A DNA stretch of 64,000 nt from a virus (IMGVR_UViG_3300031993_000041:1-64000); one strand, 5' to 3'. Positions 1,063 to 58,272 are shown, counted from the stretch's first letter. Numbers and translations: made by a program. Notes: generated by a model not told the origin, from the letters alone.

Positions 1063-2124
1063 TTATATAATTTTATATTTCTTTTTAATTTCAGACCAAA
1101 TCTGATTTTCTTCTATCTTAGTGTTGAGTACCTCGCCTATAGGGCTTACCTGTGAATAATATACCGTCCATACAGGTTCGTTCACCTTACTGCCGTACTT
1201 CGCTTTCCCGTTCACCATAAAGTTTCTGCCGCCAGAATCGGTGTACGTGAATCCCTGGTATATACAGCCGTCATCATACAGTATGACTACAGGCGTCGCT
1301 ATTTTCTGTTCAACTTCTTTCTTCACAAAGCTTTTCTGCGTATCGACGTTTATATCGATGTTCATAAGAGATGAAAGCCTTGCCTTCAAGATTCCTTTCG
1401 AATCCCTGTAGAAGGTCACTGTTCCGTTATCGTTTTCTGGGTTCCTTACATTCTTAAGAGCCTCGTCTATCTCCGCGATAAGCACGCCGTTTTCAAAGCA
1501 AGGCATGAAGGTATTCATGACCATAGAGAAGTCTATCTTAAAATCTTTTTTCGTCGTAGACGTGAATTCCACAGGATATGTCTGCGTATATGATTCAAGC
1601 GGTTTTATTGCGGCGTCGACATTGAACAGACCGACATCAACGGTGAACGCATGAATTCTATGATACAACTTCGATACCACCGATTCTATACATTTGAACA
1701 GCTCGTTTACGTTTGATACGACAATAGTACTTTTGAATGTCAGCGATACCGGAACGAATTCGGTAGTGATACTGCACTCACGCATTACGCCGTTGCACAT
1801 CCTTTTGAATTTGCTTTCCACAAACTTGTTTGTGTTCTTGTTAGTCTCTATCGCTAAGCTTTCAAGTTGTATGACGCATCTTGGAACTGTTTCGTAGTCG
1901 AGCTTCGCAATATCAAGGCCTTCGTAGGCATATATGAATTTGTCCCTTAAGAACTGTTCCTGGCCGGTGACCGAGAACAGGCAAGGGATGTCGACTTTAC
2001 GTATTTCTGTTTCCGATACCTGCTGGTAGAAATACATAAGGTTTTTCATCTCCATAAGAAGCGACCCTATCATTCGACGAACCATTACATCGTCATAATT
2101 GAATTTTTCATTAAATTCAGACAT
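1063..2124 (-). CDS. Tail sheath stabiliser/terminator, T4 gp15-like
   Basis: RRMIGSLL...IRKVDIPCLFSVTGQEQF...VPRCVIQLESL...VPVSLTF pattern typical of gp15 homologues; CATAAATA late-type promoter upstream. Confidence 0.6.
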   Translation of the reverse strand: MSEFNEKFNYDDVMVRRMIGSLLMEMKNLMYFYQQVSETEIRKVDIPCLFSVTGQEQFLRDKFIYAYEGLDIAKLDYETVPRCVIQLESLAIETNKNTNKFVESKFKRMCNGVMRECSITTEFVPVSLTFKSTIVVSNVNELFKCIESVVSKLYHRIHAFTVDVGLFNVDAAIKPLESYTQTYPVEFTSTTKKDFKIDFSMVMNTFMPCFENGVLIAEIDEALKNVRNPENDNGTVTFYRDSKGILKARLSSLMNIDINVDTQKSFVKKEVEQKIATPVVILYDDGCIYQGFTYTDSGGRNFMVNGKAKYGSKVNEPVWTVYYSQVSPIGEVLNTKIEENQIWSEIKKKYKII

Positions 2125-2243
2125 GTCAAAAATGTTTAACTAACATATTTATGGTTCACTCCAAATCTCATCAAACAAGCAAGGGAAAGTTTCCAATATA
2201 AGTTATTAACAGAATATCTGATATTTCCTGCATAAGTTTCTTG

Positions 2244-2251
2244 TATAAATA
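2244..2251 (+). promoter_or_regulatory. T4-late-like promoter TATAAATA (representative; (T/C)ATAAATA also at 2146-, 14497+, 34101-, 35283-, 37105+, 37129-, 39480+, 46967-, 51459-, 59384-, 62073-)
   Basis: Octamer 12-35 nt upstream of structural, lysis and terminase gene starts, always in sense orientation. Confidence 0.75.
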
Positions 2252-2268
2252 GTAAAAGGAAAGTTAGC

Positions 2269-3735
2269 ATGACAGAAAGTTACGACATAGTTCAGATATT
2301 CGCTGCGACGAAGAAACTGCAGGAAATGAACACTGCTCCGAAAGATTCTCCTGCGAATGACAGGCTGTACAGTTCTTCGATAAGCCCGATAATATCTATC
2401 AACGGCATAAACCTTGACGTTCCTGACGTCATTTCGTTCGAGATGCAGATGACGGCATTCGTACCTACGGTAAAAGTTACGTTCAAGGATACGTCAGGCA
2501 TATTCGAGTCAGACTACCTCATTACGAATGACAGCATAATAAGCGTGTTTATCTCGCCTTATGTCTCGCAAGAGCTTCTGCCTATACGGTGCGATTTTAC
2601 GGTATCGTCGTCAGAAGTAACTGGTAAGGAATATTGGGGCACTAATGATGTAAAGATTAGAAAGCTTACAGGCCAGCTCAGAATTCCTGCCTTCTTCAAG
2701 AGGACGTCAAGGGTTTCCGACGATACGTCCTTCAACACCCTCGCAAGCGCCGCAAGGGATTACGGACTTGGATTCTCATCAAATGTCGAGGATACCGATG
2801 ACAAACAAATATGGGTTAATTCGAATTCAGGCTGCCGTATGTTCATAGAGAGTATAATAAACCACTCATACTCCGATGACAATTCTTTCTTCACCGGTTT
2901 CGTTGACTGGTTTTATGACCTCAACTTTGTGGAAGTGAACAGGATATTCTATAACGCGTCAAGGCAGTCGAAGGGAAGCGGCAAGACAATGAAGGTATAT
3001 GCAGTGCAGCTGCCAACAGCAAAGGCTACCGAAGAGGACACTGTTCCTTATAAAGATACGGAATACGCCCTGACAAACGCGTTGTCTGAAAACGTCTGGA
3101 ATAACTACATTGAAACGTATTCTGTCATTATGAGGAACCAGACGACTGAAGGCTACAGGAAATATGTCCAGTATTATGACTATGTCAATGACGAATTCAT
3201 AAGCGAGTATGTAGACCCTATAACAGCAGCCGGCGAAGGCGAGATACCAGTTTCCAAGTCAAGGCTTGATACAGGCGACGCCAACGAGAACCTCAGGGAA
3301 GAAAACATATCGCTTACCGATTACGGCTTTATTACCGACAGCGTGCATAAAAACTATTATTTCGCCGAGACCCAGAATCAGTTCAATATGAATATGTGCA
3401 AGGGATTCGGAATCAAGGTGACGCTGCAGGCATACAATCCATACATAACAATGTATTCAGGTATAAGGGTGAACATCTATGATTACAATACCGGTATCGC
3501 GACTATGAAGAAAGCAGGCGACAACGAAGACCTTTCACCGTCTATGGGCGAAAGCGACGGCAGGGAATCAGGTATGGATGCAAATATGTCCGTATATAAC
3601 GAATCATTGTCAGGCATGTATGTCGTTACGGGCATACGGCTTATATACAACAAGCAGACAGGCATTATGAAAGAGGAGCTCACGCTCAACCGCAGGGAAA
3701 TGAAGCCGCCGACAAGAAGTCTTGTCCGGCAATAA
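2269..3735 (+). CDS. Putative baseplate hub protein (gp27/late control D-like)
   Basis: VPTVKVTFKD N-terminus and LSGMYVVTGIRLIY...EELTLNRRE C-terminus typical of hub proteins; TATAAATA at 2244-2251. Confidence 0.5.
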   Translation: MTESYDIVQIFAATKKLQEMNTAPKDSPANDRLYSSSISPIISINGINLDVPDVISFEMQMTAFVPTVKVTFKDTSGIFESDYLITNDSIISVFISPYVSQELLPIRCDFTVSSSEVTGKEYWGTNDVKIRKLTGQLRIPAFFKRTSRVSDDTSFNTLASAARDYGLGFSSNVEDTDDKQIWVNSNSGCRMFIESIINHSYSDDNSFFTGFVDWFYDLNFVEVNRIFYNASRQSKGSGKTMKVYAVQLPTAKATEEDTVPYKDTEYALTNALSENVWNNYIETYSVIMRNQTTEGYRKYVQYYDYVNDEFISEYVDPITAAGEGEIPVSKSRLDTGDANENLREENISLTDYGFITDSVHKNYYFAETQNQFNMNMCKGFGIKVTLQAYNPYITMYSGIRVNIYDYNTGIATMKKAGDNEDLSPSMGESDGRESGMDANMSVYNESLSGMYVVTGIRLIYNKQTGIMKEELTLNRREMKPPTRSLVRQ

Positions 3736-3753
3736 ATATAAAAACGACATTCA

Positions 3754-6700
3754 ATGGCTAAGAAACAGAAATATGAAAAGATATATGACGCGAGCTCATA
3801 TATGCTTTTGAGGACAAATCCGATACTCACTACAAATGTAAAGCTTGTATACGACGACACCTGCGATGACGTCTATATGAGCGCATACCGTACAGGAAAG
3901 ACTTTATCAGAAGGAAAATATCAGAAATTCCATATAAACGCTGACAGTTCTTTTTATAACGAAGACATAAGGAGATTCTGGAATCATGGTAAAGTCGAGC
4001 TTCCGAGGGAAGTCGTGTACAAGGGGAACCAAGTAGTAAAGGATACGTCTTTCATCAATGATGCTTCGATACAGTTTGAAAGGATGTATACGTCGAAGGC
4101 GTACAGAATGAACGACGGAAAGTTTGCTGCCGAATCAACAATATATCTCAAGAAACAGCTTCCGGACTATATAGTCATATTTAAGATGAAAGGTCCGACA
4201 ACCCTTGCTCATAATGAAAAGGGAGAACTTGTGGAACCTGTAAGCTATGATTTCGTAAAGTCTATGGAAATAGTGAAGACGATAGACATTACCGAGAATA
4301 CCCGTTTTGGACGCTATATAAGAAGATACGTGAACCAAGAGGAATTCTATGATTCTCCGTTTTTGCTTAACGGCAACTCTTTGCTTATAAGAGGTATCGA
4401 TTACAAAAGCGGCTCACTGACTTCCATAACAAAGGATATTTCTAATGTAATACGCCAGGACGCATGCCTTAACGTTGAAAACTGGAAATTCGCGTCAATG
4501 TTCTACGAGAACAATATGGTTGAAATGAACATTCTGAATATCCAAGTCGTATTCGATGACGAACTTGCTGAGCCTTTCGATGTCAACAGATATTTCATAA
4601 TGTTTTGTAACAATATCGAACTTCTGAAGCTTACGCCTGACAGATACGAACTTGTTGACATACCGCATAAAGGCATAGATTATTCAGTCCTTGACTCAAG
4701 CATAACGGTAAACGGCAATAAGACATCTGGTCCGTTATTGAAATTCTCAGACTATGAAGACATACAGGGATTAGTCGAAGAAGGCAAGCCATTGCTGCTT
4801 GACTACAGTGCAAGCGGAAATCAATATCCGAATAAATGCTTCTATACGATGTCTGACAAATATGGCAGGCTGCATGAGGTAAAGCTTCCGGCAATGGCGA
4901 CTTTCGGACAGTATAACAAAGAATATGAATGTATCGAACGTGAAATAGATGCTGAAAAGTTCTGTTCTATGGAAGCTAAATCGTTTCCTGTCAGATACAA
5001 GGCGCTTGAAAGCGAAGCTCATGACGTATTTTGCTTTACGACATATAAGGAAAACTTTTCATTTGTCAGCGGAAGCTGGCTGAAAGTCATAGACACGCTA
5101 TATACCGAAGATGATGACGAATACTGTCCTATAAGCGTCGATTCGTTTTTGAGCGTCGAAGATTTCCAAAAAGCAATAAATGAAAAGAGTTCGTTATTGA
5201 CTGTATATACATACGAAAGCGAAGACAAGATATATGTCTGTCTTAAGAATGCTATGCAGGGCAGCAGACCTTCGATAAAGGTCCTGGTGTCAGAGGAATT
5301 TATGCAGAGCATAACTCCAGAGCTTTCAACATACGAAAAGGTCCAAGCTGGATACTTTCTTAATATGACAGGCGGAACCGATGACGGCCTGAAAGCGATT
5401 GCCGTCAAAAGCTCTCTTGTCAAAGTATTCACGGACGGCAGGAACAGATATGTCGGAATCAATACAGGAAACGAGAATTCTGAAGAAAGCGAAGGTGCAT
5501 GCAGATTCGCAAAAATCATATATGTCAACCGTATGGTATTCGATGACAAGCTGACAGCCTCGAATAACACCGACTATAATTTCACGTTCCTTGAACATAG
5601 TGATGAGAAGACCGGCAGGAATGAACTTGAAGACTATATTTTCCTTACGATAGAATCACCATTGAAAGAACAGTCTGGTACAGTTGAGATATACACGGAA
5701 TTCAAGCCTGTTGTCGGAATGCTGAGCTTCTTCCCAGTAAGGGATATGTTCTCATATAATGATTATGTCGTTTCAGAAGTCGGCAGTGATGTCTCTTTCA
5801 GGTCAGAGGTCGAAAATATAGTTAAGGAAACAGTAAGAAGTAATATCAATGAAGTAAATGTCAATATTACCACTGATGCCGATAACGATGACCTCAACAG
5901 AAGAGGCACCCTTATAGAAAATGCAACGATTATGAGAGATGGTAATATGGTTATGGCAAACATCACAGATAAACCTGACCATCTTTCGACATTGATATTC
6001 ACGACAGATAAAGGAAAGCCTACTGGTAAAGTTGGAGGCGAATATACATATCATGGAGCAAAGAGCAGCATAACACCAATAACAGATTCTGCTATTATAG
6101 GCTTTATGGATATTGTGGATGTGAGGGTCAAAGATAAATTCAAGTATTACCTCAGTCCAGTGAACATAAAGAATTCCGGATATACATGTCAGTTGTTCGA
6201 TTCAAATGAGCAGAGCCTTGACTCTGAATACGGCTATTATGTTGAGAACTACATACCTGAACTTGCAGACGTAAACAGAACTATGAAGGTGATTCCTTTG
6301 TTCTGTTACAGGAATCAAGGTCTTGACGGTCTTTCATATAGGATGAATCTTAATTTTACGAAGATATTCAGGGAAACGAATATCTGTCCAGCCTTGTCTC
6401 TTAATAAGGTGTCAATACTTGACTATACACATGACATAGGATTTTACCTGAACGAATACTACAGCACGAATAACACCCAAGGCAGGGTATATGTCGAAGC
6501 AAAGAAACATTTCGACAGTACCGAGGAATGGATGCAGTTTACTGTCAAAGACTGGGTAAACAAGTTTGTAACAGATGACAACGCTTATTATGATTTATTC
6601 GAAAGCGAGAACCCATATTACCAAAGGTCTATATTTTTCTCCGAAATCTATAATACCGACCTTGGATGCGAGGCGCTGCTTAAAGGCATTAAGTTCAAAA

Positions 6701-8175
6701 TCGGCGAAGCCTATGCCGATGGCACCGCCGCAGACAATTCAGGCTATTTCTGCGGATGGAAGATAACGATACTCAATATACCGATATTCAATGTCGAGGA
6801 ATCAGAAGACTATTCAAAGCTTTCCTGCATCATAAACTACAGGACGAAATACATCCTGTTCCTAAGATTCTTTGAACTGCTTGAAAACGAAGATTCAGAG
6901 TTTATAGAAGACAGCGAAGATGAAAAGGCTATCGAACCGAAAACCTTTACGAGGTCTCTCTTATACATACTCGCTTCAAAATCAGTTGAATACAGTTCTT
7001 ACCAGACAAGGAATGCCTATTCGTTCAAAGAAGCCGTGAACAACATCGAATATAATTTGTTTATAACTGAAGACTCAGAAGAAAGCGAACCTGTTGATGA
7101 AGAGCGTCTGCCTGTCATCAAGGTAGAAGAACCGAAACTGTATAATATCAATGACTTCTTCAAACCTGTAGAAAAGATAGATACCACATACCAGGGAGTC
7201 AACAGATATGTGGACATCCAACAGATAGAGAACCCTGGTGTGCTTTCCATCTACAGATATAACGGAGAATACGAAGTGCAGGCGAAAGACATTATGTATT
7301 TCGTTAATTCTCCGTATGGAAAAAGCGTTGAAAAGAAACTGCCGTATTCGAATACGTTTATCAATATGAGCGTTATGGAGGACCCAGGAGGATTCAACAT
7401 ACCTTTCATATTGAATGAAAGCTATCATAGGCTCATATCAGAAGGAATCACGTTTACAGGCGATACGAAGTATCCGTCAAAGCCGACATATCCTGTAGCT
7501 TATAAACAGACTGATATATTCAAAGACAATCTCTGCACCGACTATTTCATACGTACGACAAATATCTATGACGAAACGTATGACGTGCTTGAGAATATGA
7601 ACAGGCCTGTTGCGAAAGAATCATACGCATATTTCGGCTCTCGCGTTATAAAGCTCCCAGACGCGATAAAAATCGATACCCTTGATACAGGAAGCATAGA
7701 TATGTCAAAACGCGATGTAAGCGATTATATCTATAAAGAAATGAATAAAGACGTCGTTTATAGGGAAACTGATGACGAAATAGAGATTTATCTGCTGCTG
7801 AACAACAGGCTTACAGGCAAAATCATAGACGATACACCTTTGTATGACACACTTATTAAGGGTATGGCCTATGACGAAGCTGAGGATAAAGGCTATCCGT
7901 TCATGGAGGAATATATCAGGAAAAATATCCTTCAATGTTATGCAGTCGGTACGATAAACGTCTACTTGAAACGTACGGTTTCAGACGATGTCAAGAACGA
8001 TTACTCCGATGGAGTTCTCGTACCTGACACCGATAAGGAACAAAAAGGTTATGAGCTGCTTGAAAATCCAGTCTTAAAGGATACAAGGAATCATCTTATT
8101 AAGAAGATTGTAATAACGAAAGAAAAGCATACCGCATATTCTTTCAGCTTCTCGATAGACCTTGTGACCAAATAA
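3754..8175 (+). CDS. Large (1473 aa) probable virion structural protein
   Basis: Long uninterrupted ORF co-oriented with the baseplate gene; no enzyme motifs recognised. Confidence 0.45.
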   Translation: MAKKQKYEKIYDASSYMLLRTNPILTTNVKLVYDDTCDDVYMSAYRTGKTLSEGKYQKFHINADSSFYNEDIRRFWNHGKVELPREVVYKGNQVVKDTSFINDASIQFERMYTSKAYRMNDGKFAAESTIYLKKQLPDYIVIFKMKGPTTLAHNEKGELVEPVSYDFVKSMEIVKTIDITENTRFGRYIRRYVNQEEFYDSPFLLNGNSLLIRGIDYKSGSLTSITKDISNVIRQDACLNVENWKFASMFYENNMVEMNILNIQVVFDDELAEPFDVNRYFIMFCNNIELLKLTPDRYELVDIPHKGIDYSVLDSSITVNGNKTSGPLLKFSDYEDIQGLVEEGKPLLLDYSASGNQYPNKCFYTMSDKYGRLHEVKLPAMATFGQYNKEYECIEREIDAEKFCSMEAKSFPVRYKALESEAHDVFCFTTYKENFSFVSGSWLKVIDTLYTEDDDEYCPISVDSFLSVEDFQKAINEKSSLLTVYTYESEDKIYVCLKNAMQGSRPSIKVLVSEEFMQSITPELSTYEKVQAGYFLNMTGGTDDGLKAIAVKSSLVKVFTDGRNRYVGINTGNENSEESEGACRFAKIIYVNRMVFDDKLTASNNTDYNFTFLEHSDEKTGRNELEDYIFLTIESPLKEQSGTVEIYTEFKPVVGMLSFFPVRDMFSYNDYVVSEVGSDVSFRSEVENIVKETVRSNINEVNVNITTDADNDDLNRRGTLIENATIMRDGNMVMANITDKPDHLSTLIFTTDKGKPTGKVGGEYTYHGAKSSITPITDSAIIGFMDIVDVRVKDKFKYYLSPVNIKNSGYTCQLFDSNEQSLDSEYGYYVENYIPELADVNRTMKVIPLFCYRNQGLDGLSYRMNLNFTKIFRETNICPALSLNKVSILDYTHDIGFYLNEYYSTNNTQGRVYVEAKKHFDSTEEWMQFTVKDWVNKFVTDDNAYYDLFESENPYYQRSIFFSEIYNTDLGCEALLKGIKFKIGEAYADGTAADNSGYFCGWKITILNIPIFNVEESEDYSKLSCIINYRTKYILFLRFFELLENEDSEFIEDSEDEKAIEPKTFTRSLLYILASKSVEYSSYQTRNAYSFKEAVNNIEYNLFITEDSEESEPVDEERLPVIKVEEPKLYNINDFFKPVEKIDTTYQGVNRYVDIQQIENPGVLSIYRYNGEYEVQAKDIMYFVNSPYGKSVEKKLPYSNTFINMSVMEDPGGFNIPFILNESYHRLISEGITFTGDTKYPSKPTYPVAYKQTDIFKDNLCTDYFIRTTNIYDETYDVLENMNRPVAKESYAYFGSRVIKLPDAIKIDTLDTGSIDMSKRDVSDYIYKEMNKDVVYRETDDEIEIYLLLNNRLTGKIIDDTPLYDTLIKGMAYDEAEDKGYPFMEEYIRKNILQCYAVGTINVYLKRTVSDDVKNDYSDGVLVPDTDKEQKGYELLENPVLKDTRNHLIKKIVITKEKHTAYSFSFSIDLVTK

Positions 8176-8892
8176 TCACAAAAGATATTTTTCGAGAGTC
8201 TCTCTAAAATTCTGATTGCAGAAAGTCATTGTCGAGAAGGCAATGATTTTACTACTTTTAGGGAAGTCTCCTCCGTTATACGGCTCTATTACGCTATGGT
8301 AATGCCTGTATATATCGAGACTATCAGTAAACTTGACATGTACGCCTCTGCTGAGAACGTAATTGTAGTAGAGGATGTATATGACGACGCTTGTAAACTC
8401 GACATCATAATTCGAATATCCGCACATGTCAATAAACAGTTGCTTATTGAATATTACAGGCTGATGAGGGTTTATTATGACAGGATTCTTAAACCTGTTA
8501 AGAGTATTATAGACTCTTGACTGATACAAGCCGGTGCCGGACACGGTAGTCTTCAGAATCGGCATGATTTCAGACGGGTCCGTCTCCCTTATGAAAATCT
8601 GGTCATCGGATATGAACAAGAATTCATCTGAAACATCTGGATATGTGTCGAGGACTGTCTTTATCTTATTGATAATATTCGCGTCCTTTGCCGGATATGG
8701 GTCGTCGCAGTCGACGAAAAATACCCTGTCCTTATATTCGTCTGGTATACTTATCCTCGCCTTTGACGAGATAAAAACTCTGTCTGCTCCTTTGAAGTAC
8801 TTCAGCACGCCTATAACGCATAATTCCGCCTCATAGCCGTTGCCGAGCGATGTCTTAGCTAAATTATTATTTAACGGCAATATTACATCCAT
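8176..8892 (-). CDS. Stealth-like / GT-A-fold glycosyl- or phospho-sugar transferase (start probably MDVILPL at 8892)
   Basis: MDVILPL...EAELCVIGVLKYF..ADRVFI...CDDPY..K.ANII.KI...DVSDEFLFISDD pattern with DxD-like motif; later HQP motif. Confidence 0.55.
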   Translation of the reverse strand: MDVILPLNNNLAKTSLGNGYEAELCVIGVLKYFKGADRVFISSKARISIPDEYKDRVFFVDCDDPYPAKDANIINKIKTVLDTYPDVSDEFLFISDDQIFIRETDPSEIMPILKTTVSGTGLYQSRVYNTLNRFKNPVIINPHQPVIFNKQLFIDMCGYSNYDVEFTSVVIYILYYNYVLSRGVHVKFTDSLDIYRHYHSVIEPYNGGDFPKSSKIIAFSTMTFCNQNFRETLEKYLL

Positions 8893-8896
8893 TGCA

Positions 8897-10183
8897 TTAC
8901 TCCTCCTCAAGTCTCATTCTGCTGTAGTCGACATTTATGCCTGTATATACACCTGTTTTCTCACCGTCACGGACTTTTACAATCTTCAGCTTATATTTGT
9001 TATCCTCTTTCATCTGGTCTGATTGTATGATACCGAAAATGTTGTCAGCCGTGTAACCTATCGCCATAGATTCAGACAAGTGCTTGAGGTCGAGGTCGTC
9101 GTTTATTTCGTAACTGCCTCTGTTCGTCTGGCATGCCGTTATACAAACAAGCTCTCTTTTAATCGCAAGAGCCCTCAGGTCCTGCGATATGAATTTCAGG
9201 TTTGTGAACGAGTCAGAAGAGTTAATGTTCCTGAAGTTGCCCATAATACCGAGGTAGTCGACAATAAGAACATGTACCTTGAACCCGAATTTCTCTTCGA
9301 TGTTCCTGATATAGTTGTCAATGTCAACTGTCGTACAGCTGCCGGTAGGATATTGCTTGATATAAAGCTGTCCTATCTTGCCAAGCGTAGACGCACGGAG
9401 TTTCGACAATTCATTTGCAACACCTGACTTCGTAGACACAAGCAGGCTGTATTCGTCACCGGTCATATTAAACAGGTTCCTTGCGATACGCTTCTCTACG
9501 CTCTGCTCCGACATTTCACAGCTTATGAAAACAACATTGTAGCCTTTCTTGATGTAAAACGCGGCGTCATTACACAAGAATACCGATTTACCGATATTCG
9601 TTTTACCGAGATAGCTTGTCAGCGTTCCAAACTCAAGGTCGTTTATCTGTGTCGAAACCTTCTCGAAGGTATACGGCACCGTTCTTGCCGTCCTGGGCTT
9701 ATGAGTATTCTCATCAAAGAAGTTCGTACCGAAATCGCCGTCAAATGATATTGACCTCGTATTGTCTATTATGTCTATACATTTGTTAACGACTTCATTC
9801 GCGTTCTGTAACGATATTTCGGTAGTGGAGTAGAAATCCACAGCCTTCTCCATATTCTTTTTAAGCGATACCATCTGTATGTAGCCTTCGGTAATGCTCT
9901 TCAGCCATTCATCATCTTCTGGGTCCTCGCTGTATATCTGCGATATTGCTTCGTTTACTGATATGTCGATATTACCTTCTTTCTTCATAATGATTGCATT
10001 ACGGAGCTGCTGCTCAGAAGGGACTTCCGAATATTCGTTAAAGAAATTGATAATCATCGCAAGAAGGTCATTCAAGACCTTGTACTTAAACAATTTCTTT
10101 CCTGTATATTTCAGGTACTGCGGATGCTGCAGAATGTAAGAGAGAATGACAATCTCAGTATGCGGGTCTATTTCTCCTATCAT
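8897..10183 (-). CDS. dnaB: Replicative DnaB-family helicase (T4 gp41-like)
   Basis: Walker A GKTNIGKS, SCEM, VLIVDYL, TACQTNR, ESMAIGYTAD, KVRDGE. Confidence 0.92.
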   Translation of the reverse strand: MIGEIDPHTEIVILSYILQHPQYLKYTGKKLFKYKVLNDLLAMIINFFNEYSEVPSEQQLRNAIIMKKEGNIDISVNEAISQIYSEDPEDDEWLKSITEGYIQMVSLKKNMEKAVDFYSTTEISLQNANEVVNKCIDIIDNTRSISFDGDFGTNFFDENTHKPRTARTVPYTFEKVSTQINDLEFGTLTSYLGKTNIGKSVFLCNDAAFYIKKGYNVVFISCEMSEQSVEKRIARNLFNMTGDEYSLLVSTKSGVANELSKLRASTLGKIGQLYIKQYPTGSCTTVDIDNYIRNIEEKFGFKVHVLIVDYLGIMGNFRNINSSDSFTNLKFISQDLRALAIKRELVCITACQTNRGSYEINDDLDLKHLSESMAIGYTADNIFGIIQSDQMKEDNKYKLKIVKVRDGEKTGVYTGINVDYSRMRLEEE

Positions 10184-27076: not shown

Positions 27077-27105
27077 ACCTTTGTTTTTTATATAAAAAAC
27101 AACGT

Positions 27106-45662: not shown

Positions 45663-45731
45663 TGTAAATTTGATTTTTATATATAAAAAACAACGGGACT
45701 AAGTCAAATTTCGGCCACGTCGCAAAAATCT

Positions 45732-47295: not shown

Positions 47296-47298
47296 TTG

Positions 47299-47371
47299 CT
47301 GTCGCTCAAGGTCTCGAACCTTGACATTCCTGGTCCAGAGCCAGGCGTGTTACCAATTACACCAAGCGACA
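47299..47371 (-). tRNA. tRNA-Gln(CTG)
   Basis: TGTCGCT/AGCGACA acceptor, CCTGG-CTCTGGA-CCAGG anticodon arm, CAAGG-TTCGAGA-CCTTG; no encoded CCA. Confidence 0.95.
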
Positions 47372-47406
47372 ATGAAAAGATTATATCTTATTTCAATGCT
47401 CTCTTC

Positions 47407-47463
47407 AAAAATTCAGTCTTAAATATCCGCCTCACGGCAGGTGAACTTGGCTGAATGTTCTTT
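47407..47463 (-). ncRNA. Small structured RNA motif, copy A (copy B at 51502-51560)
   Basis: AAGAACA-P1-RAGTTCA-CC(T)GCC-GTGA-GGCGG-ATATTTAA-P1'-U-tract; covaries with copy B. Confidence 0.65.
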
Positions 47464-47559
47464 CAAGTAGAATTATCTCAAGAATCAATCAAAAATCTTA
47501 TATAAAAAACAACATTTTACAGAAAATCCTGTAAGAAATCCAAAATATTTTCATACTTG

Positions 47560-47633
47560 TGTGTCAGGCTGGATTCGAACCAGCGACTGCCGGCTCCACA
47601 AACCGGTGCTCTGCCAACTGAACTACTGACACC
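47560..47633 (-). tRNA. tRNA-His(GTG), encoded G-1 opposite A73
   Basis: G-GTGTCAG/CTGACAC-A, CCGGT-TTGTGGA-GCCGG, GCTGG-TTCGAAT-CCAGC. Confidence 0.92.
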
Positions 47634-47639
47634 ATGTAG

Positions 47640-47715
47640 TGGGCCCAGCTGGGCTTGAACCAGCGACCACTTGATTATGAGTCAAGCGCTCTAACCTATA
47701 CTGAGCTATAGGCCC
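47640..47715 (-). tRNA. tRNA-CAT, probably Ile2 (lysidine type)
   Basis: GGGCCTA/TGGGCCC-A, CTTGA-CTCATAA-TCAAG; the body resembles Ile2 rather than elongator Met (inference). Confidence 0.85.
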
Positions 47716-47803
47716 GAATTGCCGTCGAAGGATTTTACATCTGACTACCGTCAGACACTGGGCTGAGCGACCTTTCCCATTGTACCCGGAATACAAGTCT
47801 GTG

Positions 47804-47889
47804 CGGAGAAAGCAGGACTTGAACCTGCACGCCTTACGGCTACTGGAGGTTTAGCAAACCTCTTCCTTACCAATTAGGATTATTTCTCC
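47804..47889 (-). tRNA. tRNA-Ser(GCT)
   Basis: GGAGAAA/TTTCTCC-G, GAGGT-TTGCTAA-ACCTC, long variable arm. Confidence 0.95.
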
Positions 47890-48021
47890 ATGAAGATTTT
47901 ATTAAACAATACCGCTTCACGTACGGCAGTTGCAGTTCTAATTAAGAACCCGACGGAATTCCGTGACGATGCGAACATCCGAATTCTCTCAAAGCCTTTC
48001 GCACAGGCTGTTGAGGTATCG

Positions 48022-48095
48022 CGGGGGTGGGAGGATTCGAACCTACGGCCTAATGATTAACAGTCATTCGCTCTAACCTGCTGAGCTACACCTCC
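48022..48095 (-). tRNA. tRNA-Asn(GTT)
   Basis: AATGA-CTGTTAA-TCATT; one mismatch each in the acceptor and T stems. Confidence 0.9.
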
Positions 48096-48110
48096 TTATA
48101 TTTGTTTTTG

Positions 48111-48192
48111 TAGGATTGAAGAGAATCGAACTCTTACGCCTTGCGGTACCAGGTCCTTAGCCTGGCGCGTCTACCAGTTCCGCCACAATCCC
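48111..48192 (-). tRNA. tRNA-Leu(AAG)
   Basis: GGGATTG/CAATCCT-A, CCAGG-CTAAGGA-CCTGG, class II variable arm, AAGAG-TTCGATT-CTCTT. Confidence 0.93.
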
Positions 48193-48275
48193 ATGTAACG
48201 GCGCTTTTATTATTTTCTCATGCAGATTCGCCGAAATCTATAACTGCATTCAGCAAGGCGCTACCTTGTCATTCG

Positions 48276-48350
48276 TCGTGATAGATGGATTCGAACCACC
48301 GACCTTCTCGTTATCAGCGAGATGCTCTAAACCACCTGAGCTACATCACG
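48276..48350 (-). tRNA. tRNA-Ile(GAT)
   Basis: CGTGATG/TATCACG-A, TCTCG-CTGATAA-CGAGA. Confidence 0.95.
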
Positions 48351-48363
48351 GTATCCAATATAG

Positions 48364-48438
48364 TTGCGAGGATGGGACTTGAACCCATGACCTTCGGTTT
48401 ATGAGACCGACGAGCACTCCATCTGCTACCACCTCGCT
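48364..48438 (-). tRNA. Initiator-type tRNA-fMet(CAT)
   Basis: Unpaired 1:72 (A:A), A73, TCGGT-CTCATAA-ACCGA; fMet-like body. Confidence 0.88.
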
Positions 48439-48604
48439 GTGAACTACCACAAACTAAAGATTTGCTGGCTTCTTGCTTCACAGCCGTTGCTTTGACTAAT
48501 GTCAAAGTCTTACATCAGCTCCACAAGTGTACTCGACAGTCCCTGCCGAGGTTTTATACTCTTATTAACTGAGTTTACTTTTAGGTTTTACTTGTACAAG
48601 ATTT

Positions 48605-48633
48605 ATAGTACAAAACAATTACCAATTTGTCAA
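48605..48633 (-). promoter_or_regulatory. Sigma70-like promoter TTGACA-17nt-TACTAT upstream of the fMet-His tRNA block
   Basis: Exact TTGACA, 17-nt spacer and TACTAT, overlapping TATAAAT. Confidence 0.5.
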
Positions 48634-48741
48634 TGTACTTTTATTATTTATATATGAAAATATATTATTTTTCGAAAATACACGCAATTCTTCCAAGAAG
48701 CTAAATATTTTTGGTTTTCTCGCTAAAAATTATATAAAATG

Positions 48742-48766
48742 ACAGGATTCTTTAGCAAGACCTGTC
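48742..48766 (-). terminator. Putative terminator hairpin
   Basis: GACAGG...CCTGTC inverted repeat followed by ATTTT on the minus strand. Confidence 0.45.
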
Positions 48767-48931
48767 AGCTTGCCCGGCAAACGTTCCGGCTGCAATTTCT
48801 TACAGATTTTCGATTTCCTGCTACATACGCCTCACAGGAATTATTTCACCAACAGTTTCTATAAAATAAGATGTTCATTATGGCAAATTAAACATCTGTG
48901 TTACTCCCGGCGCCGGTTTTACACTCATACT

Positions 48932-49210
48932 TTACTTGATTTCATCAATATAAACTATGCAATCAAATACATCGTCAGGCATATCGTTAACAAGATTGTC
49001 AACTACCACACGGTATCCTTTCATATACATAATATCGCAGAAATCAGAAAGACTTCTGAAATAATACTTCCATTCGCCATGGCCATTGATACCTCCTGTT
49101 AGATGAACCTTCAGAGAACCGTTTTCAGCATTCGTTTCAGAAATGCTTAATTTCGAGCCAGCCTGTATACAGGCTACTTCGATGTCACAATGTAATTTTT
49201 GTAAATCCAT
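48932..49210 (-). CDS. Hypothetical 92-aa protein embedded in the RNA island
   Basis: Protein-like composition, AT-rich leader, ATG start. Confidence 0.6.
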   Translation of the reverse strand: MDLQKLHCDIEVACIQAGSKLSISETNAENGSLKVHLTGGINGHGEWKYYFRSLSDFCDIMYMKGYRVVVDNLVNDMPDDVFDCIVYIDEIK

Positions 49211-49352
49211 ATTAAAAAGTTTTAGTTAGCTTGAAAAATGAGCAGCAATCATCATAAACGACGTGCAAAAAGTTCAATCTGCTCCAGCGGCGACCTACAA
49301 ACCAGATGCCTGAGAATATAGCCATCGCTGCTGTTACTTTTCTTTTTGACAA

Positions 49353-49425
49353 GTTGACTTCCTGGATTCGAACCAAGATAGCAGCCGTTTTAATAGCACT
49401 GTCTTAACCGTTAGACGAAAGTCAA
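49353..49425 (-). tRNA. tRNA-like gene with non-pairing anticodon stem (pseudo or undetermined)
   Basis: TTGACTT/AAGTCAA, GTCT/AGAC D-stem and CTTGG-TTCGAAT-CCAGG intact; anticodon arm GTGCT-ATTAAAA-CGGCT does not pair canonically. Confidence 0.75.
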
Positions 49426-49516
49426 AAAACCAAAGAGCTACCTGCAAATAACCTTTGGAAAACCACTAATGACATCAGTGAGCTTGCAGACTTTGATGGC
49501 ATTTACCAAGTTTTTG

Positions 49517-49588
49517 TACCTCAGCCGGGAATTGGACCCGAATTACATGGTTGAAAACCATGTGTCCTAACCATTAGACGACAGAGGC
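49517..49588 (-). tRNA. tRNA-Glu(TTC)
   Basis: CATGG-TTTTCAA-CCATG; T-loop TCCAATT (C55 variant). Confidence 0.88.
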
Positions 49589-49740
49589 AGAAAAAGTTCT
49601 TTAACTCATTTGCACATTTAACGGCTACTTTTAAGAACTTCCGGCCTGAAAGTAAGCTTTCAGGTCTCTTATAAGAAATTTTGCCTTACTCCAGTCACCA
49701 CTTCCGGCCCGGGTGAAGGCCCCTGGAGAGTGTTTCGTTG

Positions 49741-49813
49741 TGGACACGGGGTGACTCGAACACCATCTTCCTGAGTGCAAATCAAGCGCATTAGCCAATT
49801 ATGCTACCGGCCC
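49741..49813 (-). tRNA. tRNA-Ala(TGC)
   Basis: CTTGA-TTTGCAC-TCAGG, G3:U70, A73; two acceptor mismatches. Confidence 0.85.
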
Positions 49814-49825
49814 AAATTAAATTTA

Positions 49826-49937
49826 CTGCGTCAGCGGGATTCGTACCAAACATTGTGTGACTGCTCTTCCGGATTATTCTCGCACTCCCACGTCCGGCAA
49901 ATTGTGGGTTGTAGGTCAGCCATTCCCACATAACGCA
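49826..49937 (-). ncRNA. Oversized tRNA-like RNA E1 (112 nt)
   Basis: TGCGTTA/TGACGCA acceptor, TGTGGG/CCCACA D-position arm, CCGGA/TCCGG extended arm, weak T-arm with TACGAAT loop. Confidence 0.45.
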
Positions 49938-49942
49938 ATATT

Positions 49943-50133
49943 AGAAAAGAGTTTTTCGACCTCACTCTGCAGAGCCTGCACAGCTGCTACCCTGTTTCAA
50001 CGGGGATTTTCAGCGGAATCCCTCACACTGGCGGCTTACAATCTATCATGCCGACGATTTATGCTGTCTGTTTTAATTCTGACAGCCAGAAGAATTCCCT
50101 TATGCGCAGGGATTTAGATGAGTTACCTTTTCT
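49943..50133 (-). ncRNA. Unclassified multibranch structured RNA (~190 nt)
   Basis: Closing AGAAAAG/CTTTTCT; CCCT/AGGG, CTGG/CCAG enclosing CTGTC/GACAG and CGGC/GCCG, GGGATT/AATCCC. Confidence 0.45.
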
Positions 50134-50167
50134 TTTGTAGGAGGAACCACCAAGAAATAAACCTACC

Positions 50168-50283
50168 TGGGTGATGCTTGAAGGAATCGAACCTTTGTAT
50201 TGGATGAACTTTAATCATTACAGAGGGTATTACCCTTAGACCATAGAAGTTCATCCAGCTTGCCCACTTTGCAAAAAGCATCA
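50168..50283 (-). ncRNA. Oversized tRNA-like RNA E2 (116 nt) with long anticodon-position arm and possible encoded CCA
   Basis: TGATGCT/AGCATCA-C-CCA, TTGC/GCAA D-stem, perfect 11-bp TGGATGAACTT/AAGTTCATCCA, AAGG-TTCGATT-CCTT. Confidence 0.75.
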
Positions 50284-50287
50284 AAAA

Positions 50288-50414
50288 ATCACCGTGCTAT
50301 CCTTACACTTTATGCCGCTATCTTTTACTGCTCTATAGCAGTCGTGCTTTACTCATATTACGTAACTATGAACACAGTTTCACGACCATTGCAGACTCGA
50401 ACTGCACTTGTGAC
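50288..50414 (-). ncRNA. T-arm-first (permuted, Y-RNA-like) tRNA mimic candidate
   Basis: GTCAC - TGCAG-TTCGAGT-CTGCA - GGTCGTG/CACGACT closed helix - GCTAT/ATAGC - GTGAT. Confidence 0.35.
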
Positions 50415-50424
50415 TTTATTTTTG

Positions 50425-50768
50425 TGGAGGTGCGGAGATTCGAACTCCGGTCCTGCAAACCGTCAATACAAGATATTATTTACATGTTTAGGATAACAGA
50501 TTAAGGTTCTGTTCCAAAACCTCTGCTCTCGCAGCTCCACCACCTGATTTAATCTAACCAGGAAATCTTAAAGGCTATTAAGCAGCCATTCTCATTGCTA
50601 CTGGAGCGATGCGGATGTCTGCTACTCTGTTTGCGAAGTCTACAACCTTGTTGCTTACTTTGCTGAAAGTATTTTTTACCTTTATTTTCTGACCGTTGTT
50701 TTAGGTGAACCGTTCAATCACCACATGTACCTCATACCACTAATCTACAGTCAAAACCATACACCCCC
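50425..50768 (-). ncRNA. ssrA: tmRNA
   Basis: 5' GGGGGTGTATGGTTTTGAC; 3' GGAC-CGGAG-TTCGAAT-CTCCG-CACCTCC-A with G3:U70; tag frame ending MRMAA-TAA-TAG. Confidence 0.95.
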
Positions 50769-50869
50769 AAAAAAGTTTGTGAAGCCCTACCACATAGCCA
50801 ATTTAATAATGAGAATCGAACTCATGTTTCCCCATAGTTCCAAAATCCATAGAGAAATATGGAAATTGT

Positions 50870-51190
50870 TTATAATTTAATAATTATCGGGTGAACTACA
50901 ACACCCTCTATCCCATTGTTGAAAACCTTTGGGAATGCTTTTCTCATGATGTTATAACTTCCGTTCACGTCGGCGTTTATCTTGTTCCCATTTTCTGAAA
51001 CAAACAAGCCACGACGAACACGCTTGCCTTTATAAACATCATGCTTTTTAATTTCTTCCAAATCAAGGAAACTGCACTTGGATGTGTAGCTTTCCTCGTT
51101 TGTAATTACTTTTATCCCCACTTTTTCGCATTTGTATGAAATCATATCAACAAATCTACTGTGGGGTCTAAAGCTCACAAACTTATTCTT
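50870..51190 (-). pseudogene. tnpB: 5'-truncated IS200/IS605-family TnpB remnant
   Basis: PHSRFVDMISYKCEKVGI.V...EESYTSKCS.LD...GKRV.RGLF...INADVNGSYNI...GIEGVVVHP; homology stops near 51190 and no REC/WED or RuvC-I part is present. Confidence 0.88.
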
Positions 51191-51501
51191 AAAATTAAAA
51201 ATCCTATACAGCCCTCGACAGTATTCGCCCTGTTGTAGCCACCCTTTGGTCTCAATACTCTTAGTATCACGCGAGTAGGTCGAGCGTAAAAGACACATCC
51301 TCACAGATTATTATTTTCAACCCTTCATCCTCGAATGCTTTGAAGGAAAAACCTGCTCCACCTCGGATTTTTATAACATTTATCTCGTTGTTGTTAGTTT
51401 ATGGACAAACTTTTCCATTTCCCTACAACATACTAAAAATTCCTTATGTCAAAGAACTTATTTATAGTATCCGCAAAAATAGCAGAGATTCTATACGTCT
51501 T

Positions 51502-51560
51502 AAAAAATGGACCTTTAATGTCCGTCTCGCGACAGGTGAACTCGGTCCAAGATGTTCTTT
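51502..51560 (-). ncRNA. Small structured RNA motif, copy B (copy A at 47407-47463)
   Basis: AAAGAACA-TGGACC-GAGTTCA-CC(T)GTC-GCGA-GACGG-ACATTAAA-GGTCCA-TTTTTT. Confidence 0.65.
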
Positions 51561-51639
51561 GGAAACAAAACCACAAAGTACATAATTATGAAATCGTACC
51601 ACACTATGTTACCATAGCCAGCAAAACGCGATAAAAGAA

Positions 51640-52170
51640 TTACACTTGTATCATCCGCTAAAAGCAGACTTAGGTCCAGCCTATCGTGATTTATATGTCT
51701 GTTGTGGTCTGGAGCACACCATCACCATATCGAAATTCTTGCAAGTGAACATAATAAAACTTATTGTATCGTAGTTTAATGTGGGTCACGCGACCACTCC
51801 AAGCTCATTTTACTATGTTAATTTCAACTTAGGCAATCTGCAAGGGCTCGCCTTACAGACGTTCTGCTATTCAATATATTCGCAGAATGTCTTCCGTCTG
51901 CTCTCTACACCTTTATGAGCTACTTGACAAGTCAAGCTGGTATCTGTCATATTCCGATTTCGAGTGCTTCTCATGATATGCCTATTTTATACACACTCTT
52001 CTCCATTAGACTACTTGCTCAATTTAGCTCGGTGTTATCTGCGACTTATTTGTTTGTCTTTACAGCGATTTTTCATCTTTACAGGGCTTAGCACCTTGAC
52101 AGACTTCCACCGAATTTGGAAGATTCTACTCCGGCGTTTCCACCGGAGCACACAATAAATCTATTTCAAT
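51640..52170 (-). ncRNA. Large ornate ncRNA (~500 nt), ROOL/GOLLD-class candidate
   Basis: No credible ORF; closing GATTTAT/ATAAATC and TTGTG/CACAA; long-range TCTGTCA/TGACAGA, AGCTCAT/ATGAGCT and GGAG/CTCC; hairpins CTCCGGTG-GAAA-CGCCGGAG, CTTCCA/TGGAAG, CAGACG/CGTCTG, GGTC/GACC. Confidence 0.6.
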
Positions 52171-52185
52171 GTACTCTTCATTTTG

Positions 52186-52324
52186 AGCGTACTTGAGGAT
52201 TCGAACCTTCTGATACAAGTTAGTCGACGTCTCATGTATCATTGAATAGTTAAGCTGCCCACAACATATATCAGAAATTTCGAAGGTACTTCTGTAAATT
52301 TCATCAACCTATTCCAGCATACGC
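52186..52324 (-). ncRNA. Oversized tRNA-like RNA E3 (139 nt)
   Basis: GCGTAT/GTACGC, ~70-nt D-position domain closed by GAATAG/CTATTC, TGATACA/TGTATCA arm, GA(A)GG-TTCGAAT-CCTC. Confidence 0.7.
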
Positions 52325-52462: not shown

Positions 52463-52487
52463 TAATTTCAATGTACTCTTAATTTAG

Positions 52488-52702: not shown

Positions 52703-52900
52703 TTGTCAAAACGTATGGAGTCGAACCATATTCTTCCATGTCCTTTCATATCGTGGTCCTTCTATATTGGATGACGGTCCGTACTAAAAAGTTTTGCAAT
52801 CACTTTGTTTCCAGAAGCCGGAAGAAATTCGCGAATCTTCATTTCACGATACGGGATGTTCTGCCAGTTAAACTACAATTATCGTCAGACAACCCTGACA
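52703..52900 (-). ncRNA. Oversized tRNA-like RNA E6 (~198 nt)
   Basis: TGTCAG/TTGACA, canonical D-arm TA-GTTT-AACTGGC-AGAAC-A, >100-nt anticodon-position domain closed by TATCGTG/CACGATA, perfect TATGG-TTCGACT-CCATA. Confidence 0.7.
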
Positions 52901-52970
52901 TAATGATTATATTTCAATGTACTTAAAATCTTTAATTATCTGTCTCACGACAAATGTACTTTATTTTTCG

Positions 52971-52989
52971 TATATAAAAAACAACGTTT
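52971..52989 (-). promoter_or_regulatory. Recurrent promoter-like motif AAACGTTGTTT(T/A)TTATATA (representative copy; others at ~13959, 18779, 23050, 25515, 27089, 45680, 47499, 55957, 58249, 60706)
   Basis: 11 near-identical copies, all on the minus strand and just upstream of gene or RNA starts. Confidence 0.8.
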
Positions 52990-55612: not shown

Positions 55613-55945
55613 TTATTTTATTTTAAATCCGTTTTTATTCGTCGTTTCAATTACGGCATAATCATAGAACAACATAAGATTCTCCCTATACTTGGAATAA
55701 TCATCAATAATCTTACATATCTGCATTGAACTCAGACTTCCCTCCTCCCACTTATACTTTAATTCGAAAAAAGTTATCATCTTACCAGCGTATGTCAGTC
55801 TTTCCCTTATTACTGATTCATCCACATCATAGGTTGGTCCTTGAATGTTTGAACTGTTCGTAATACATGACAGAATCACATACTTGCATTTTTCATAGTC
55901 AGCCTTCATCCGGCGGCGTAACTTACGTACTGTAAATATCTCCAT
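55613..55945 (-). CDS. Hypothetical protein
   Basis: 110 aa; promoter motif at 55957. Confidence 0.6.
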   Translation of the reverse strand: MEIFTVRKLRRRMKADYEKCKYVILSCITNSSNIQGPTYDVDESVIRERLTYAGKMITFFELKYKWEEGSLSSMQICKIIDDYSKYRENLMLFYDYAVIETTNKNGFKIK

Positions 55946-55974
55946 AATTATTTTTATATATAAAAAACAACAAA

Positions 55975-58229: not shown

Positions 58230-58272
58230 GTCTTCATAATTTTTAATATATATAAAAAACAACAAATAAAAA

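Follow-up and report, generated by a model that had tools for sequence, protein, structure and literature searches.

The first 64,000 nt (hereafter the window) of the virus record IMGVR_UViG_3300031993_000041 from IMG/VR were analysed; the whole record comprises 88,875 nt, with a CheckV completeness of 32% and a GC content of 39.4%. Between positions 47298 and 52900 the minus strand carries a 5.7-kb island of RNA genes consisting of 11 tRNAs, one transfer-messenger RNA (tmRNA), tRNA-like RNAs and a large conserved non-coding RNA (ncRNA). Protein genes are nearly absent along this strand from about 53.0 to 47.3 kb, and all open reading frames (ORFs) of at least 100 amino acids (aa) regarded as genes between 41.8 and 60.7 kb are also encoded on the minus strand. 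The subject of this analysis is a hairpin module repeated within the island, which an earlier note on this DNA had described as a duplicated RNA motif of about 57 nt with compensatory base changes and a GNRA loop. The strings quoted there are the reverse complement of window positions 47407–47463 and 51502–51560: both full copies, A (47463→47407) and B (51560→51502), belong to the minus strand, which also encodes the surrounding tRNAs, tmRNA and ORFs.

A covariance model, designated R1, was built from copies A and B and run over the window without filters. This search, with a model of the kind that the earlier note had proposed, added an eroded third copy (C). A fourth site (D) is a 20-nt relative at 51775–51794 (family D5) with 17 of 20 positions identical to copy B; it was not retrieved by R1 at E ≤ 10 in the window scan and its descent from the module is doubtful. 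The four sites are located as follows.

47407–47463, minus strand: copy A, complete module, 72.1 bits with R1; tail AAAGAACAU, 7-bp outer helix with one C.A mismatch, U5; core with loop strands AAGUUCA and AUAUUUAA and inner hairpin CC(U)GCC-GUGA-GGCGG
51502–51560, minus strand: copy B, complete module, 71.3 bits with R1; tail AAAGAACAU, 6-bp outer helix, U6; core with loop strands GAGUUCA and ACAUUAAA and inner hairpin CC(U)GUC-GCGA-GACGG
52925–52964, minus strand: copy C, eroded, 25.3 bits with R1 (E = 2.6e-4); 30-nt core retained at 52961→52932 as AAGUACA, UU(U)GUC-GUGA-GACAG and AUAAUUAA
about 51800→51775, minus strand: copy D, doubtful relic within the large ncRNA; hairpin GGUC-GCGU-GACC followed by ACAUUAAA, identical to the 3' loop strand of copy B

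The duplication was borne out by a degenerate pattern of the 30-nt core, for which copies A and B were the sole matches with up to three mismatches allowed, and which gave no match in 100 shuffles. A scan of the genome and related loci for the full architecture of clamp helix, GNRA hairpin and T-tract retrieved copy B alone. Copy C lacks a genuine outer helix and has a run of just four U, and its loop strands are identical to those of copy A at six of seven and seven of eight positions, with C-G to U-A and C-G to U.G changes in the inner helix. The conserved unit is a 30-nt core composed of RAGUWCA, a 5-bp GNGA hairpin with an extra U, and AYAWUWAA; the clamp helix, the A-rich tail and a good U-tract are confined to copies A and B. 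The first reading had proposed that the motif be taken for an ordinary terminator if the internal-loop strands diverged in a larger alignment, and in the third copy they were retained.

The gap-free alignment of copies A and B over the hairpin and U-tract (alignment A3) revealed standard pairs in 22 of 24 pair cells, upholding the claim that the outer helix differs in sequence and still pairs and that the inner helix contains a compensatory change. Two-sided changes were detected in four of the 12 pairs, three in the outer and one in the inner helix, and sliding the 3' partner by 1–3 columns lowered pairing to 12–46%. When copy C was included, all 15 cells of the inner helix paired, with two compensatory pairs. 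Substitutions were concentrated in the outer helix (8 of 14 positions vs 6 of 43 in the rest of the module; Fisher p = 0.003) and at paired positions in general (10 of 24 vs 4 of 33 unpaired ones; Fisher p = 0.014). In both full copies the bulged U is present and the U-tract directly follows the outer helix on its 3' side. The original description of the copies stood with respect to the helices, the GUGA and GCGA tetraloops, the bulged U and the U5 and U6 tracts, but it had missed the C.A mismatch in the outer helix of copy A, and the conserved part of the 5' tail had to be corrected to AAAGAACAU (9 nt), with a 2-nt indel ahead of the helix. Watson–Crick pairing across the internal loop was also considered and rejected, the pairing not being kept between copies. 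Since the helices drift yet stay paired while the tail, loop strands and U-tract remain fixed, the comparison points to selection acting on both the structure and the loop sequence. Thermodynamic support was merely moderate, with folding z-scores of -2.3 for copy A and -1.3 for copy B.

A hairpin followed within 0–2 nt by at least five U, the arrangement expected of an intrinsic terminator, was found in copies A (U5) and B (U6) and was absent from copies C and D. The position of copy B was compared with two related IMG/VR phages, a 183-kb contig (loci L029 and L031) and a 124-kb contig (locus L030). The large ncRNA upstream of copy B (window 52174→51595) matches L029 10704–11300 and a stretch of L030 blockwise. 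In both relatives this RNA closes with a terminator of the ordinary kind, in which GGGTTTCACA(A/G)ACCC leads into T8 or T4; the equivalent sequence of the window is decayed (CGATTTCATAATTA), and copy B is located 34 nt further on. Copy B thus lies at the 3' end of a unit and takes the place of the ordinary terminator of the relatives, which is the strongest evidence for a terminator role of the complete module. Downstream of the ordinary terminator of L030 come AAAACA and then GTACATTAAAAT. The order of terminator, GTACATT(G/A)AAAT motif and next RNA gene is found in L030 with an ordinary hairpin and at copies A and C with the module.

Copies A and C are accompanied by promoter-like and boxA-like motifs, located as follows.

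47499–47515, minus strand: AUGUUGUUUUUUAUAUA, a promoter-like motif that ends 35 nt before copy A
47380–47408, minus strand: sigma-70-like promoter TTGAAG-N17-TATAAT (10 of 12 matches)
47390–47401, minus strand: boxA-like motif GAGCAUUGAAAU, 17 nt past the copy A core
52971–52987, minus strand: the promoter-like motif again, immediately before copy C
52911–52922, minus strand: boxA-like motif GUACAUUGAAAU, 9 nt past the copy C core

The -35 hexamer of the sigma-70-like promoter overlaps the end of the copy A U-tract, and its -10 hexamer ends 8 nt ahead of the tRNA-Gln gene. Downstream of copy B only TTTAAG-N17-TATTTT could be read from the sequence. About 14 occurrences of the promoter-like motif, (CUGUAAA)ACGUUGUUUUUUAUAUA, were counted on the minus strand. 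Its DNA form, (CTGTAAA)ACGTTGTTTTTTATATA, is about 24 nt long (e.g., at 45680–45696, 55957–55973 and 58249–58265) and is mostly located just past a stop codon, 10–25 nt ahead of the next ATG. At 27078–27105 and 45667–45696 the motif is palindromic and present on both strands. Because of this recurrence, it probably represents the phage's own class of promoter.

Taken as a whole, the module is tentatively interpreted as a structured intrinsic terminator or leader hairpin that is specific to this phage lineage and whose core would bind a factor, a reading whose probability falls somewhat short of even. Within the island the two-storey hairpin would mark where one transcription unit gives way to the next. 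Where the module is complete, in copies A and B, the A-rich tail, the 6–7-bp clamp around the 30-nt core and the run of five or six U would bring about Rho-independent termination on the coding strand; base-pairing of the tail with the U-tract is possible, an arrangement known from L-shaped or bidirectional terminators. Copy B would end the unit carrying the conserved ncRNA of about 600 nt, and copy A would divide the main tRNA run and a promoter-like motif from the sigma-70-like promoter and tRNA-Gln. The core is a probable protein site because it is conserved beyond the needs of termination and persists in copy C, in which the terminator parts are missing; as such a site it would render termination conditional, or else allow the RNA end to be stabilised or processed. 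The observations themselves comprise the sequence, both helices and their covariation, a core kept in three copies, the placement relative to RNA genes and recurrent motifs, and the exchange for an ordinary terminator used by the relatives; both functions, termination by copies A and B and binding of a factor by the core, are what we infer from them. The earlier note had suggested a functional small RNA or a ligand- or protein-sensing attenuator; the structured element under selection held up, and the evidence points first to termination at unit borders, with a protein-sensing attenuator or antitermination role of the core being plausible.

The layout of copy A is known from T4-like phages, in which terminators and promoters form composite cassettes, PeSLs (PMC4122927, PMC2839356). 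The module shares with them a coding-strand hairpin that is A-rich on its 5' side and runs directly into a U-tract, a sigma-70-like promoter immediately after copy A, and repetition at unit borders of one phage genome. It differs in that the stem-loops of PeSLs are simple and short, whereas here a 30-nt core conserved in sequence is contained in the stem, and in that the 2–4 copies are all located in the RNA-gene island, one of them keeping the core without the terminator.

Several observations weigh against termination as the primary function. The hairpin is weak, with a 7 × 8-nt internal loop, a basal stem of 6–7 bp and the modest z-scores given above, and a simple terminator scan did not call the module. 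The covariation statistics are thin, as they are based on two full copies from one genome and 34 of 500 shuffles reached the observed values. At copies A and C the module comes after the promoter-like motif and not before it, an order which suits a short small-RNA gene or a 5' leader better than a unit end. Copy C, with no clamp and four U, presumably cannot terminate, yet its core is conserved. No candidate core-binding protein was identified.

The core could also be a dedicated protein-recognition hairpin of an undescribed kind, lying within a terminator and thereby coupling binding to termination. It would act either as the RNA half of an antitermination or attenuation switch governing expression of the tRNA/ncRNA island, or as an RNA anti-CRISPR that decoys a Cas6-type nuclease of an uncatalogued repeat family; this more specific proposal is unlikely. 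Behind a promoter-like motif, a 110-aa ORF (55613–55945, minus strand) encodes an arginine-rich N-terminus, VRKLRRRMK at residues 6–14. It superficially resembles the RNA-binding motif of lambda N and might be regarded as a candidate reader of the core.

The simplest competing explanation, in which plain intrinsic terminators were copied within the island and loop conservation merely reflects shared ancestry, is also considered unlikely. It would account for the terminator geometry of copies A and B and for their occurrence, at a distance of 4.1 kb, in a single genome among the collections searched, and GNRA tetraloops are common in terminators. Against it stand the uneven substitutions, which affected the stems much more strongly than the loops and tail (p = 0.003 and 0.014), and copy C, which keeps the loop strands and the hairpin after losing the terminator features.

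The boxA-like motifs raise the question of antitermination. The motif GTACATTGAAAT is restricted to the RNA island and located immediately 5' of RNA genes, at the following sites.

window: 52911–52922, 52465–52476, 52163–52174, 48627–48638 and 47390–47401
relatives: L029 10704–10715; L030 9024–9035 and 8333–8344

Exact matches to its form GUACAUUGAAAU number three in this genome, all of them within the island, and variants were detected after copy A and ahead of tRNA-fMet. The gamma-proteobacterial boxA consensus is GYTCTTTAANA (PMC5725501). The L029 form GTTCTTTGAAAT, scored as GTTCTTTGAAA, agrees with this consensus at 10 of 11 positions, but the window motif, GTACATTGAAA, agrees at just seven of the 10 specified positions and deviates at three. 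The agreement in L029 suggests Nus-factor-type antitermination of the untranslated island.

The core would accordingly be read as a boxB-like hairpin of a leader resembling those of rrn or lambda nut, at which Nus factors or an N-like protein would allow read-through. As an account of the module this is distinctly unlikely, although a leader with a hairpin followed by boxA is a reasonable competitor where copies A and C are concerned. At both of these the order is promoter-like motif, core hairpin, a gap of 9–17 nt, boxA-like motif (GUACAUUGAAAU at copy C) and a tRNA or tRNA-like gene. This places a small GNRA-type hairpin shortly before a boxA-like motif, between a putative promoter and untranslated RNA genes, much as in rrn and nut leaders. 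With its 5-bp stem and GNRA loop the hairpin falls into the size class of lambda boxB, and an untranslated island of 5.7 kb is an obvious target for Rho. On the other hand, the boxA-like motif occurs without the hairpin at 52476, 52174 and 48638, and the hairpin occurs without the motif at copy B. The clamp helix followed by five or six U is a feature of terminators and not of nut or rrn leaders, and the sole hint of an N-like protein was the arginine-rich N-terminus of the ORF at 55613–55945.

The position between RNA genes would suit a processing signal, at which RNase III or a phage endoribonuclease frees tRNAs and ncRNAs from polycistronic precursors by recognising a coaxial stack equivalent to about 20 bp. 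The succession of lower stem, conserved internal loop, upper stem and tetraloop resembles the early RNase III sites of T7 (R1.1), which are likewise irregular two-stem hairpins with a conserved internal loop, intergenic in a polycistronic transcript, and conservation of the loop sequence is typical of R1.1-type sites. The likeness stops at the dimensions: the helices are much shorter (6–7 bp and 5 bp) and the near-symmetric 7 × 8-nt loop is larger. Copy C has no lower stem, and the 3' U-tract, absent from the T7 sites, would be left unexplained. Processing is rated as quite improbable.

The 5' part of the core bears some resemblance to repeats of clustered regularly interspaced short palindromic repeat (CRISPR) systems. 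The module might be a solitary CRISPR-repeat mimic, or RNA anti-CRISPR (Racr), whose core imitates a class 1 repeat of the I-E/I-F kind and sequesters a Cas6-type nuclease; the probability of this is slight. When copy A, as GTTCAC(C)TGCCGTG-AGGC(G)G, is aligned with the first 20 nt of the published Pseudomonas aeruginosa I-F repeat, 18 of the 20 positions agree, two indels being allowed. Like I-F and I-E repeats, the core has a GUUCA 5' flank, a GC-rich 5-bp stem (CCGCC/GGCGG or CUGCC/GGCGG) and an A/U-rich 3' flank of exactly 8 nt, and GUUCA with the CCGCC/GGCGG stem recurs in genuine I-F arrays, one of which belongs to a metagenome-assembled genome of rumen Selenomonadales. Solitary repeat units acting as RNA anti-CRISPRs are promoter-proximal (PMC10651486). 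Copies A and C are solitary units on a viral genome with no cas genes nearby and lie just past the promoter-like motif, within the 250 bp expected of such elements, the promoter being putative and deduced from its recurrence.

Direct comparison also brought out differences. The stem of the core carries an additional U, its loop is a tetraloop where the repeats have a pentaloop, and its 3' handle is unlike CUUAGAAA, which belongs with a 28-nt unit, a 5-bp stem and a 5-nt loop to the family CRISPR-DR4 (RF01317). True I-F repeats (locus L090) scored 46.4 bits with this model, while copies A and B gave no match at E ≤ 10 with it or with any other CRISPR-DR model, including when a 75-nt query was used. 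When the I-F repeat was aligned blindly with the whole phage genome the score was 26, against a null mean of 22.8 and a null maximum of 29 in shuffled genomes, so that the match does not surpass the top chance hit and is not significant. The matches listed in searches for three copies of AGTTCACC in genomes were ordinary I-F arrays and tandem repeats, and those for three copies of GTTCACCTG in metagenomes were tandem repeats; among the matches listed in these scans there was no array with the core as its repeat, and the spacers of the fetched arrays did not match the phage. Membership in CRISPR type I-F was rejected on account of the irregular spacing of the copies (260 to 4095 nt among A–D, with 1.1–1.4 kb from C to D or B), the missing CRISPR-DR4 score and the lack of cas genes, none having been found among 10 neighbouring ORFs scanned with Pfam and PHROGs.

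The Selenomonadales genome mentioned above (RUG024; L090) contains a 24-repeat I-F array at 1–1411 scoring 46 bits with CRISPR-DR4, and the ORF sizes at 1540–8000 fit Cas6f, Cas7f, Cas5f, Cas8f and Cas2-3. Array and ORFs together indicate that I-F systems with hairpin repeats exist in rumen hosts of the Bacillota type.

The inability of the earlier note to assign the motif to a named family was confirmed by the Rfam scan it had called for: with Rfam 15, both at the gathering threshold and at E ≤ 10 (queries of 5.2 kb, 75 nt and 77 nt), no family was placed on the motif, and the sole low-threshold output was a chance match of 8.7 bits to a small nucleolar RNA. The absence of any riboswitch or ribozyme among these results bears on a further possibility, a ligand-sensing riboswitch or self-cleaving ribozyme. 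Unpaired conserved nucleotides between covarying helices, followed by a terminator, are what such an element would contain, and sterically the tail and the 5' loop strand could form a GAAC/GUUC pseudoknot, the pairing being present in one fold. Nevertheless, the element is very small, copy C is without half of it, and RNA genes or a pseudogene, not a metabolic gene, lie downstream; a sensor or ribozyme of this kind is extremely improbable.

A number of known motifs were also compared with the core and rejected. The signature nucleotides of the K-turn, loop E/sarcin–ricin, T-loop and tetraloop-receptor motifs are absent, as are those of the Y-RNA Ro site, the preQ1-type pseudoknot and the Cas12a repeat. 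A sigma-70 promoter inside the core was dismissed as its hexamers misfit. The tail read on the plus strand, UGUUCUUU, is boxA-like, but it would be antisense to all local genes, and the simpler reading is that of a bidirectional terminator seen from its U-rich side.

Outside the window the module could not be found. R1 had no match in seven related viral records or loci (L029, L030 and L031 included), and a strict core pattern had none in IMG/VR, JGI metagenomes and GTDB genomes. A pattern of the loop strands alone gave 26 matches in IMG/VR, all without the hairpin and attributable to chance, and BLAST of copies A and B against 50,697 GenBank phages returned only short chance matches. Searches with flanking genes revealed no relatives of a 130-aa ORF; a 188-aa ORF had relatives, in which the array was missing. 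As far as can be seen, the element appears to be confined to one phage genome. With evidence from one genome, its value is that of a defined, testable candidate and not of a new class.

The control and punctuation of transcription in tRNA/tmRNA arrays of large phages are poorly understood. A terminator with a sequence-specific core, if the interpretation offered here is right, would be a compact means of conditional termination in an untranslated operon, and the 30-nt core would serve as bait for its reader protein. Should the core be a nuclease decoy instead, RNA-based anti-defence would be extended to a new type of repeat.

The RNA island is more remarkable than the hairpin motif itself, as it adds oversized tRNA-like RNAs and a large unassigned ncRNA to the usual set of tRNAs and tmRNA. 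Its other features are listed below.

47298–47371, minus strand: tRNA-Gln
50168–50283, minus strand: tRNA with a 36-nt insert
50422–50768, minus strand: phage tmRNA (86 bits in Rfam) with an unusually long predicted tag ending ...APVAMRMAA
50834–51304, minus strand: TnpB-like relic of 144 aa, homologue with an OrfB_IS605/TNB domain
51595–52174, minus strand: conserved structured ncRNA of about 580 nt, with its L030 counterpart at about 8330–9035
near 52195, 52343, 52497 and 52715, minus strand: tRNA-like T-arm words with canonical T-arms
52705–52796, minus strand: low-score tRNA-like call

At least four tRNA-like sequences have GGTTCGAATCC-type T-arms and were called by neither ARAGORN nor Rfam. 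Near the 5' end of the ncRNA there is a GAAA-type hairpin that covaries, and its closing helix is ACCACA...UGUGGU; no Rfam family matched this RNA of about 580–600 nt.

The TnpB-like relic invites a reading of the hairpins at the DNA level, as ends of an IS200/IS605-type transposon, as attachment (att) sites of the island or as an operator. Same-strand hairpins with an extra T, 4.1 kb apart, do flank the relic together with the tmRNA and 10 tRNAs. The relic, however, corresponds only to residues 579–676, the last 98, of a 676-aa protein of a related phage (94% identity), and no TnpA gene accompanies it. Its right end is a breakpoint at 50834, common to three related loci, and not copy A; the TnpB-like copies in L029 (4267–6297) and L031 (6004–6116) share this breakpoint 36 nt beyond the stop codon, and the related loci are without such a hairpin. 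IS200/IS605 ends were therefore rejected on the breakpoint, the TnpB remnant and the missing TnpA, and GNRA loops and U-tracts are strand-specific features of RNA. Any DNA-level function is rated as scarcely credible.

The 3' 334 nt of the TnpB-like gene are common to the window and both relatives at 90–94% identity, and in L031 a 114-nt piece of the same 3' end lies directly ahead of tRNA-Met. Retention of an omegaRNA or right-end segment beside tRNA or tmRNA genes would give such a pattern. The phage also encodes a T4-type UvsX-like recombinase. Among the tRNAs of the window, the one at 49353–49425 (minus strand) was read by ARAGORN with a 2-base anticodon, and the 24-tRNA array of L031 includes a tRNA with a UCA (opal-reading) anticodon and one with a 4-base anticodon (tgta), at 5618–5690 and 6211–6283.

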